The translations under genes and the position numbers were made by a program. DNA of 64,000 nucleotides from Escherichia coli (GTDB lineage: Bacteria > Pseudomonadota > Gammaproteobacteria > Enterobacterales > Enterobacteriaceae): NCBI RefSeq assembly GCF_001677475.2, contig NZ_CP015229.1, one strand, 5' to 3'. Positions 8,550 through 9,710 of this stretch are shown one piece after another. Each line of letters begins with the position of its first letter. The stretch's first letter is position 1. The notes below the pieces were generated by a model that was not told where the DNA came from, did not search any database, and saw only the letters and a program-made list of their open reading frames with translations.

Positions 8550-9710
8550 ATGAAATCTCTTGCTGAATTTCACTTGAAAAATAATGCGGTAATGGGGGTA
8601 TATCACAACCGTACCCTACCTTCTTCTTATCACGATGCTATGACCGAATATAAAGCCGTTCGTGAAAACGCACTGCTGGTGGACTATTCTCACCTCTCTA
8701 TTGTTAGCGTCATGGGCGATGATGCCTGGGCGCTGATCAACCAGCTGGTTTCCGCAGATGTCTCCATCATTCGTGATGAGCAGGCAATCTACTCACTGGT
8801 GTTGAATGAAGAGGGCACCATTCGCGGAGACGTCTATGTGCTGTGCAGCATCGACGGTTATTACCTGCTGTCTGAAGATATTTCGGCTACCGAACTGATC
8901 GCCAGCATGAATACCATTCTCGAAAAAGCGGAAGAACTGGATATTCAATCGCTGCCTGAAATTCAGGATATGCAGGAAAACAACTGGGGGGCAATCCTGC
9001 TCGAAGGCCCATACTCCTGGGAGATCATGTCTGAAATTCATGGCTTTGACGTGATTGGCCTGCCTTACTACGAATACATGAATACCGATGAGGATCTGCT
9101 GATCTTCCGCTGTGGTAAACATGGTGAGTATGCGTACATGACCATCGGTGAGCAGGCGAAACTGGCGGAGCAGTGGGAAAAACTGTTAACCGTCGGCGAG
9201 AAATACCTGATGCAGACCGGCGGCCTGGATTATCAAAAAATCGTACGCCTCGAAAATCCATGCTGGGATGCCAGCCTGTGGGAAGGTCAGGCGGTGAATC
9301 CGGTTCAGTTGCAGATGCAGTGGGCGGTGCAGTACGACAAAGATGATTTTATTGGCAAGGACGCGGTGACAGAGCTCTCCCAGGAGTATACCGGTAATAA
9401 ACTCATCGGCATGATCGCACAGGAAGAATGCGAAGGCATTGAGGCTGGCGATCGCGTGCTGGTGGAAGGTCAAGACGTGGGTTATGTCGTGAAAGCGGTA
9501 TTTTCCCCGGCATTGCAGCGTTTCATTGCCCTGACCCTGCTGGAAAAGGATTACGCCTGGTCTGATATCAGCGGCTACGAAATTCAAACTGCCCACGGAA
9601 TTATTCCAGCGCAATCAAAATGTATGCCGTTTATTTATAACCTGAGCATGTTGGTTAGCCCAACTGAGCACAGTTATATCGACGCGTCAAAAAATAAAAG
9701 CGCAGCGTAA
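8550..9710 (+). CDS. GcvT/aminomethyltransferase-family (folate-binding fold) protein
   Basis: 386 aa; N-terminus aligns by eye with GcvT (AVRENALLVDYSHLSIVSVMGDDAWALINQLVSADV versus GcvT AVR..G.FDVSHM....G.DA..FL..L..NDV). Confidence 0.6.
   Translation: MKSLAEFHLKNNAVMGVYHNRTLPSSYHDAMTEYKAVRENALLVDYSHLSIVSVMGDDAWALINQLVSADVSIIRDEQAIYSLVLNEEGTIRGDVYVLCSIDGYYLLSEDISATELIASMNTILEKAEELDIQSLPEIQDMQENNWGAILLEGPYSWEIMSEIHGFDVIGLPYYEYMNTDEDLLIFRCGKHGEYAYMTIGEQAKLAEQWEKLLTVGEKYLMQTGGLDYQKIVRLENPCWDASLWEGQAVNPVQLQMQWAVQYDKDDFIGKDAVTELSQEYTGNKLIGMIAQEECEGIEAGDRVLVEGQDVGYVVKAVFSPALQRFIALTLLEKDYAWSDISGYEIQTAHGIIPAQSKCMPFIYNLSMLVSPTEHSYIDASKNKSAA

Follow-up and report, generated by a model that had tools for sequence, protein, structure and literature searches.

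Proteins of the GcvT fold that bind tetrahydrofolate (THF) share four invariant residues, Met56, Asp101, Tyr197 and Glu204 in human GcvT (PMC9551070). Met56 and Tyr197 form the pteridine pocket, Glu204 makes a double hydrogen bond to the pteridine, Asp101 activates N10, and Arg233 is a further contact specific to GcvT; in the T-protein, the polyglutamate tail of folate docks on a basic patch formed by the C-terminal region (PMC9551070). Here we analyze a gene of Escherichia coli at positions 8550 to 9710 of a 64,000-nt stretch of contig NZ_CP015229.1 (the window), whose product adopts the T-protein fold yet forms part of a subfamily distinct from the glycine-cleavage T-proteins. The gene belongs to the core of a type II polyketide or fatty-acid-like synthase of the ketosynthase-chain length factor (KS-CLF) kind, comprising an acyl carrier protein (ACP), KS-CLF, ketoreductase (KR), dehydratase (DH), and transacylase (AT). 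The ACP-coupled GcvT-like subfamily is large, and our literature searches found no description of it, its ACP partnership, or the changes in its folate site.

8550..9710, + strand: GcvT-fold protein of the ACP-coupled subfamily, 386 aa, ATG start, orthologue of ECs_1288

The gene has an AGGA ribosome-binding site 8 nt 5′ of its ATG. A first-pass annotation, made from the letters and open reading frames (ORFs) alone, had assigned the product to the aminomethyltransferase family from an N-terminal pattern (AVR...D.SH....V.G.DA...L..L...DV, residues 36 to 71), and this assignment is borne out by two Pfam matches, GCV_T (7.2e-33, residues 5-259, full model length) and GCV_T_C (5.5e-8, residues 284-361). 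Among PDB sequences, the top match is the Thermotoga maritima T-protein 1WOO (2.5e-24), followed by 1V5V, 1YX2, and 3A8I. Structural prediction, which the same annotation had proposed as a check, arrives at the same fold. That is, the AlphaFold2 model, built from a 52-sequence alignment, has a mean pLDDT of 94.8 and a pTM of 0.91, and in a Foldseek search of the PDB the T-proteins rank first (TM 0.77-0.83, E ~1e-27 to 1e-32), above DmdA, DMGDH, SoxA, DMGO, and LigM, with YgfZ and Iba57 further down. Pfam, AlphaFold2 and Foldseek thus all identify the three-domain T-protein fold, with a TM of ~0.8 to GcvT structures (1WOO, 1WSV, 3A8I). The Asp101 equivalent and the SH(M/L), R-x-G-x-x-G-E, and R-L-E motifs are also retained. 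Moreover, as in the case of GcvT, the gene is paired in the genome with that of a small carrier bearing a thiol-ended swinging arm; this partner, however, is a phosphopantetheinyl ACP and not a lipoyl H-protein.

In other respects, the protein departs from GcvT. Its scores lie under the NCBIfam cut-offs for the family (NF001567, 136.7 vs 300; TIGR00528, 101.4 vs 235.85; NF010093, 83.8 vs 459), and its neighbors in the window are the ACP and KS-CLF genes in place of gcvH and gcvP, whereas a control T-protein with canonical residues, P0230, is encoded in a gcvT-gcvH-gcvP arrangement. Because of these scores and neighbors, together with the replaced folate contacts (Tyr197 exchanged for Lys, Glu204 and the Asn of the VVNA motif lost) and an extra C-terminal tail, we do not regard the protein as a T-protein. 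The label "aminomethyltransferase" should not be taken to mean glycine cleavage here, as this could mislead metabolic reconstructions.

Coupling to an acyl carrier protein

Conservation of the gene neighborhood, another check suggested by the first-pass annotation, proved strongly positive. Scanning 100,044 species genomes with the pattern RxG[KE][TH]GE[FY][GA]Y returned 80 loci, and the window proteins were mapped by phmmer onto 87 loci, in three of which the GcvT-like gene touches a contig end. The gene is immediately preceded by a same-strand ACP domain in 84 of the 87, or 84/84 of those assessable, and these come from at least eight phyla. The window conforms to this arrangement, with the ACP gene ending 35 nt before the GcvT-like start at 8550. 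The remaining synthase functions co-occur to varying degrees in the 87 mapped loci (KR in 79, KS-CLF in 78, DH in 59, AT in 55).

The scan loci belong to Enterobacterales, Acinetobacter, Competibacteraceae, Paraburkholderia, Planctomycetes, Gemmatimonadetes, Fibrobacter, Opitutales, Bryobacterales (Acidobacteria), and Poribacteria, with many in Myxococcota (Polyangium, Archangium, Labilithrix, Sandaracinaceae). The cluster is also present in Enterobacter, Klebsiella oxytoca, and Klebsiella aerogenes, and the loci of Acinetobacter and Neisseria have the 16-gene order of the window, including its two-partner secretion (TPS) pair. Every member with non-canonical residues that we looked up sits in a KS/ACP cluster; the same context surrounds metagenomic relatives at 40%, 36%, and 31% identity as well as relatives at 27-33%.

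In three loci, from Archangiaceae (L068), Sandaracinaceae (L075), and an uncultured proteobacterium (L077), the ACP and GcvT-like domains share one reading frame. The order in these natural fusions is ACP, then GcvT-like domain, with a linker of ~20 residues and no stop codon between the two. Clusters with two ACPs (the Opitutales loci and L069) have one ACP beside the GcvT-like gene and the other with the KS genes.

These data bear directly on the idea that the gene is an ordinary glycine-cleavage T-protein paralogue which has come to lie beside lipid-synthesis genes by chance. T-proteins are indeed its best matches in both sequence and structure. Nevertheless, an ACP adjoins in all 84 assessable loci across phyla, fusions occur, the scores fall far under the GcvT cut-offs, canonical residues are lost, and gcvH and gcvP are absent nearby, whereas the canonical control has both. 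We consider a chance-located paralogue vanishingly improbable and reject it, as the context statistics exclude it.

The distant clusters also carry accessory genes of their own. Locus L062 (an Archangium metagenome-assembled genome, 2168-7384 and 12693-14333) encodes, according to NCBIfam, a CrtI/carotenoid-isomerase-like FAD oxidoreductase, a GltD-like oxidoreductase, and a ferritin-like protein, and ~25 loci, mostly from Myxococcota, encode a conserved TAT-signal protein without a family match. The Fibrobacter and Opitutales clusters are predicted, from reading their sequences alone, to encode an MMPL-type transporter and PlsC- and LpxL-like acyltransferases. Clustering of ORFs in high-GC distant loci suffered from wrong-frame artifacts of stop-to-stop ORFs; after filtering by GC content at third codon positions, the co-conserved genes of distant loci were lineage-specific neighbors only.

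Folate site and C-terminal tail

The equivalents of the folate-contacting residues were assigned by three alignment methods, including a profile-profile alignment, all of which concur. The first-pass annotation had proposed to examine the conservation of these residues, and the expectation of a folate enzyme held only in part: the equivalents of Asp101 (D94) and Arg233 (R233) are kept, and that of Met56 is L49 (Met in most orthologues), whereas Tyr197 is replaced by K190 and Glu204 by M197, a position which is variable across the subfamily. The window protein thus differs from canonical representatives, which read M-D-Y-E-R. In addition, the near-invariant Asn of the VVNA motif of T-proteins aligns with Glu109 or its neighbor; the wider subfamily has Glu or Gly at this position, not Asn.

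A further difference concerns the C terminus. The profile-profile alignment with T-proteins stops at a common "PF," after which the subfamily runs on for ~23 residues. This tail has the consensus PFxxNxSxxVxPxxHSY, with Ser366 present in 87 of 88 sequences, and is absent from T-proteins.

Residues 360-377: C-terminal tail of the window GcvT-like protein, PFIYNLSMLVSPTEHSYI

Since the C-terminal region of T-proteins binds the polyglutamate tail of folate, the extra residues could occupy or cover that site. Also nearly invariant in the subfamily, along with Ser366, are Arg38, Asp/Glu94, Glu109, Arg187, Lys190, Glu193, and Tyr196, although R187, K190, E193, and Y196 are partly conserved by construction, the R-x-G-K-x-G-E-x-x-Y block having served as the search pattern that retrieved 80 of the 88 loci.

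To see how these features are distributed, we turned to an exhaustive search of 1.84 billion representative proteins, which yielded 4148 relatives; residues were surveyed in 135 full-length sequences among the best 150 of these. Twenty-two of the 135 have the canonical M-D-Y-E-R set and no tail. By contrast, in 57 the tail motif occurs with Lys in place of Tyr197 and without Glu204; another 21 also have the tail and lack Glu204, but their residue at the Tyr197 position is a different non-aromatic one (Arg in nine, plus Asn, Glu, Val, Ser, and Leu). Given this split, the residue signature and the tail travel together, and the window protein carries both, with K190, M197, and a tail at 360-377 of the P-[FL]-x-x-N-x-S...H-S-Y type. 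The scan pattern fixed Lys or Glu at position 190, so the invariance of Lys190 among the scan loci is partly built in, but the unbiased 135-sequence set agrees. A third group (P0196, P0161, P0226, P0229, and P0250) has Ile, Leu, or Met at the Asp101 position and a shorter "PLFITK(T/S)" tail; P0196, with Ile (locus L090), is encoded in an ACP-GcvT-like-KS-AT-KS arrangement. None of the ACP-linked branches keeps the full canonical tetrad. Two to three canonical folate contacts have been lost together with the gain of a tail.

Other branches of the fold offer precedents for such change. YgfZ and Iba57 have likewise lost canonical folate contacts while keeping the Asp, but they are weaker structural matches (TM 0.49-0.63) and their genomic context is unrelated. 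Nor is the essential Cys motif of that family, KGC[YF]xGQE, conserved across the subfamily; the window protein reads FRCGKHGE there, and the subfamily consensus is R-x-G-K-T-G-E. The THF-dependent demethylases DmdA and LigM/DesA and the GcvT-like domains of DMGO, SoxA, and Tdm share the common fold (Foldseek TM 0.65-0.82) and illustrate reuse of the scaffold beyond aminomethyl-lipoate. These enzymes, however, are reported to keep their pterin contacts (PMC9551070), and they act on free small molecules and have no link to carrier proteins. Scores against them are again under the cut-offs (DmdA, 73.7 vs 410; LigM, 26 vs 580; DesA, 29 vs 800), and the Glu204 equivalent is kept in the DmdA alignment and absent from the window protein.

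Possible role in the synthase

The genes of the window cluster are closely spaced on one strand, as follows.

980-4792, + strand: TpsA haemagglutinin-like protein, two-partner secretion, cluster head
4881-6500, + strand: ShlB/FhaC transporter (tpsB), two-partner secretion, cluster head
6516..6884, + strand: dedicated holo-ACP synthase (AcpS)
6898..7659, + strand: FabG-like KR (short-chain dehydrogenase/reductase)
7663..8211, + strand: FabZ/FabA-like DH
8233..8514, + strand: ACP, 93 aa, with an LDSVD phosphopantetheine-attachment motif
9784..12342, + strand: KS-CLF fusion, 852 aa, FabF-like N-terminal half
12347..13570, + strand: second ketosynthase-like protein with a non-canonical catalytic set
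13567..14520, + strand: hypothetical protein, 317 aa
14531..19371, + strand: export module (LolD-like ABC ATPase, 218-aa secreted hypothetical protein, LolC/E-like FtsX permease, LolA-like protein, 462-aa hypothetical protein)
19382..20326, + strand: FabD-like malonyl-CoA:ACP transacylase
20323..21309, + strand: ycdU, polytopic inner-membrane protein, last cluster gene
21503-21590, - strand: tRNA-Ser (GGA), directly after ycdU

The first-pass annotation had correctly placed the gene between those for ACP (8233-8514) and a ketosynthase (the KS-CLF, 9784-12342), and it was also right that such proteins are outside textbook fatty acid synthase (FAS) and polyketide synthase (PKS) systems. The cluster has all the parts of a type II KS-CLF synthase: a KS with Cys-His-His, an inactive CLF-like half, a discrete ACP, AT, KR, and DH. 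The KS and CLF are the two halves of one protein, the N-terminal half keeping Cys-His-His and the C-terminal half having Ala, Ser, and Phe at these positions; the latter resembles a chain length factor because all three catalytic residues are gone. Genes for an enoyl reductase, a thioesterase, or an acyltransferase were not recognized in the E. coli form of the cluster.

The closest parallel to the synthase as a whole is provided by the type II PKSs of Gram-negative bacteria for aryl polyenes (APEs) and flexirubins, which share the dissociated KS-CLF, ACP, KR, and DH, the lack of an enoyl reductase, and the LolA-like and transporter genes. Some distant relatives of the window cluster also appear to have the PlsC- and LpxL-like acyltransferases and the MMPL-type transporter in common with APE clusters. 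The present cluster differs in that no aryl-starter genes were recognized, the GcvT-like gene is obligatory, and the enterobacterial form opens with a TPS pair; to our knowledge, classical APE clusters have no GcvT-like protein. The LolA-like and transporter genes that accompany the synthase, as they do in APE clusters, point to an envelope-bound lipid product.

We are highly confident that the GcvT-like protein is an ACP-dependent core subunit of this synthase and think it probable that it works independently of folate. A role in chain release specifically is a tentative assignment. Taken together, the best overall explanation, to which we would give somewhat less than even odds, is an ACP-dependent, folate-independent subunit that acts on the phosphopantetheine-tethered chain and most likely releases it. 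If the pair works like T-protein and H-protein, the ACP encoded next door would insert its phosphopantetheine arm into the tunnel and central cavity where the T-protein receives the aminomethyl-lipoyl arm. The remodeled site, with Asp94, Glu109, Arg187, Lys190, Glu193, and Tyr196 plus the tail with Ser366 as candidate active-site residues, would then act on the thioester-bound chain without folate, and hydrolysis or aminolysis would free the finished chain from ACP. The Lol-like ABC transporter, the LolA-like protein, and the putative outer-membrane module would next take up this lipid for the cell envelope. It is conceivable, if far from assured, that the T-protein scaffold has in this way exchanged one swinging arm, the lipoyl arm of H-protein, for another, the phosphopantetheine arm of ACP, giving rise to a new class of folate-independent enzymes which release or aminolyze an envelope-lipid chain.

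Three considerations lead us to favor release. The GcvT-like protein is the sole cytoplasmic protein of the E. coli-type cluster that is non-standard for FAS or PKS, and no releasing enzyme is encoded. A priming enzyme is less needed, given that KS-CLF systems can usually prime themselves. Lastly, the GcvT-like domain follows ACP in the fusions, as do the releasing domains of type I synthases in ACP-TE, ACP-R, and ACP-C didomains. If this account is true, the protein would help make an envelope lipid of enterohemorrhagic E. coli O157:H7 (on O-island 47, OI-47), Enterobacter, Klebsiella oxytoca, Acinetobacter, myxobacteria, and others. The cluster is present in important pathogens. Seeing its one non-standard enzyme as a T-protein relative tied to the ACP offers a handle for finding the product, for testing whether type II synthases use a new off-loading or tailoring chemistry, and for studying a carrier switch from lipoyl H-protein to phosphopantetheinyl ACP.

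Several observations weigh against this account. The case for release rests on elimination and domain order, and other proteins might carry out this step, namely housekeeping thioesterases or acyltransferases, YcdU, or the second KS pair. Some distant clusters (Fibrobacter and Opitutales) do encode predicted PlsC- and LpxL-like acyltransferases. When the L077 fusion was modeled with AlphaFold2, both domains had high pLDDT, yet the linker was of low confidence (overall pTM 0.77) and the ACP was not confidently docked. As to folate, the Asp101 equivalent is Asp or Glu in 88/88 subfamily members, the equivalents of Met56 and Arg233 are retained in the enterobacterial clade, and Asp stands at the Glu204 position in ~40% of distant members, which makes non-canonical folate binding conceivable. 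These residues, together with the complete GcvT fold, are what speaks for a folate-dependent one-carbon enzyme, in which THF or methylene-THF would add or remove a one-carbon or aminomethyl unit on an ACP-tethered chain or starter. We regard such an enzyme as unlikely, however, considering that Tyr197 has given way to Lys (57) or Arg (9) among the 135 surveyed sequences and Glu204 is variable, where the 22 canonical proteins keep M-D-Y-E-R; that the VVNA Asn is lost and a conserved tail added at the presumed polyglutamate site; that one ACP-linked branch lacks even the Asp; and that the cluster contains no folate-related gene or riboswitch. The one-carbon transfer onto the lipid that the first-pass annotation had proposed, as a speculation, is thus probably wrong, and its other suggestion, supply of a starter or extender unit, is likewise disfavored by the sequences.

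An enzyme that prepares or loads a special starter on ACP before KS-CLF elongation, for instance by decarboxylation of malonyl-ACP or conversion of a tethered precursor, would explain why two-ACP clusters keep one ACP by the GcvT-like gene and the other by the KS genes. The cluster lacks a FabH-type KS III, the CLF-like half has Ala instead of the priming Gln at its active-site position, and the conserved Lys and Arg of the cavity could bind a carboxylate. Most clusters, however, have a single ACP, which must then serve elongation as well, loading domains usually precede the ACP and do not follow it as in the fusions, and an adenylating or CoA-ligase partner was not recognized in the cluster, all of which renders priming rather improbable. 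We give comparably little credence to a non-hydrolytic subunit, that is, a folate-independent binding protein, chaperone, or cyclase that would shelter or shape the reactive ACP-bound chain. Folate-independent members of the fold do exist in Iba57 and YgfZ (PMC9551070), type II PKS cyclases supply an analogy, and a large cavity at the center of the fold, a gene that is always paired 1:1 with one for ACP, and the branch without the catalytic Asp would all suit such a protein. On the other hand, its near-invariant charged residues (R38, D/E94, E109, R187, K190, E193, and S366) are more typical of a catalytic site.

Several further features of the cluster deserve mention. The 317-aa hypothetical protein had no match in Pfam, NCBIfam, or the PDB and compares with the CLF half at E = 0.16. 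It is fused to the second KS in locus L005, and distant loci have a second and third KS-KS fusion in its place; the L005 fusion is the sole ground for linking it to the second KS, of which it is probably a degenerate, CLF-like companion. The LolA-like protein matches PDB entry 3BUU (2.6e-34), and the 462-aa hypothetical protein is a probable outer-membrane protein. The 73-nt spacer between the GcvT-like stop and the KS start holds a 7-bp GC-rich inverted repeat (GCCGCGT...ACGCGGC, 11-nt loop, 9719-9743) without a T-run after it. Over positions 1-22000, Rfam picked up the tRNA-Ser alone and neither a THF nor a glycine riboswitch. Counts of promoter-like sites fell below those of shuffled controls, and counts of terminator-like sites deviated from the controls by no more than two standard deviations.

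Island and distribution

Neither the gene nor the cluster is new as such: both have been annotated in numerous genomes, and the island itself is well known. What appears to be new, judging from our literature searches, are the subfamily, its ACP coupling, and its altered folate site. In O157:H7 Sakai, the region corresponds to ECs_1282-ECs_1298, and the GcvT-like protein is ECs_1288, annotated as "aminomethyltransferase." The island is O-island 47 of EDL933 (z1528-z1556), and the papers on OI-47 that we consulted mention only "fatty acid biosynthesis" or "Fab" genes. A proteomics paper on Shiga toxin-producing E. coli mentions only the housekeeping gcvT, and our full-text literature search found no study on an ECs_1288-type protein or the cluster product. 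The original O157:H7 genome paper reportedly described the island as an "adhesin and polyketide or fatty-acid biosynthesis system."

Of 5426 complete E. coli genomes, 381-382 carry the region at 98-99% identity, so that ~7% have the full cluster. In K-12 and most other strains of the species, similarity to the window begins only at ~19983 and covers ~340 nt of the fabD-like gene plus ycdU. As the match starts there, K-12 ycdU looks like the last gene and remnant of the cluster. In Sakai, the phage-like element SpLE1 with its integrase starts just past the tRNA-Ser, and an integrase lies at the same place in an O145:H28 strain; the window ORFs there show no such element.

The GcvT-like gene is intact in Sakai and the O157:H7 genomes examined. 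A 287-aa short form, P0033, was also found, at 98% identity over 72% of the query and representing 143 member sequences, which suggests that the gene is broken in some Escherichia lineage.

Nearly all of the close loci (L002, L003, L009-L031, from Enterobacterales, Acinetobacter, and Neisseria) have the TPS pair at the head of the cluster, with its gene order unchanged. Of the 87 mapped loci, 24 have ShlB and 22 have TpsA, all of these belonging to the ~25 close ones, and the distant clusters are without the pair. A functional link between the TPS exoprotein and the lipid product is possible.

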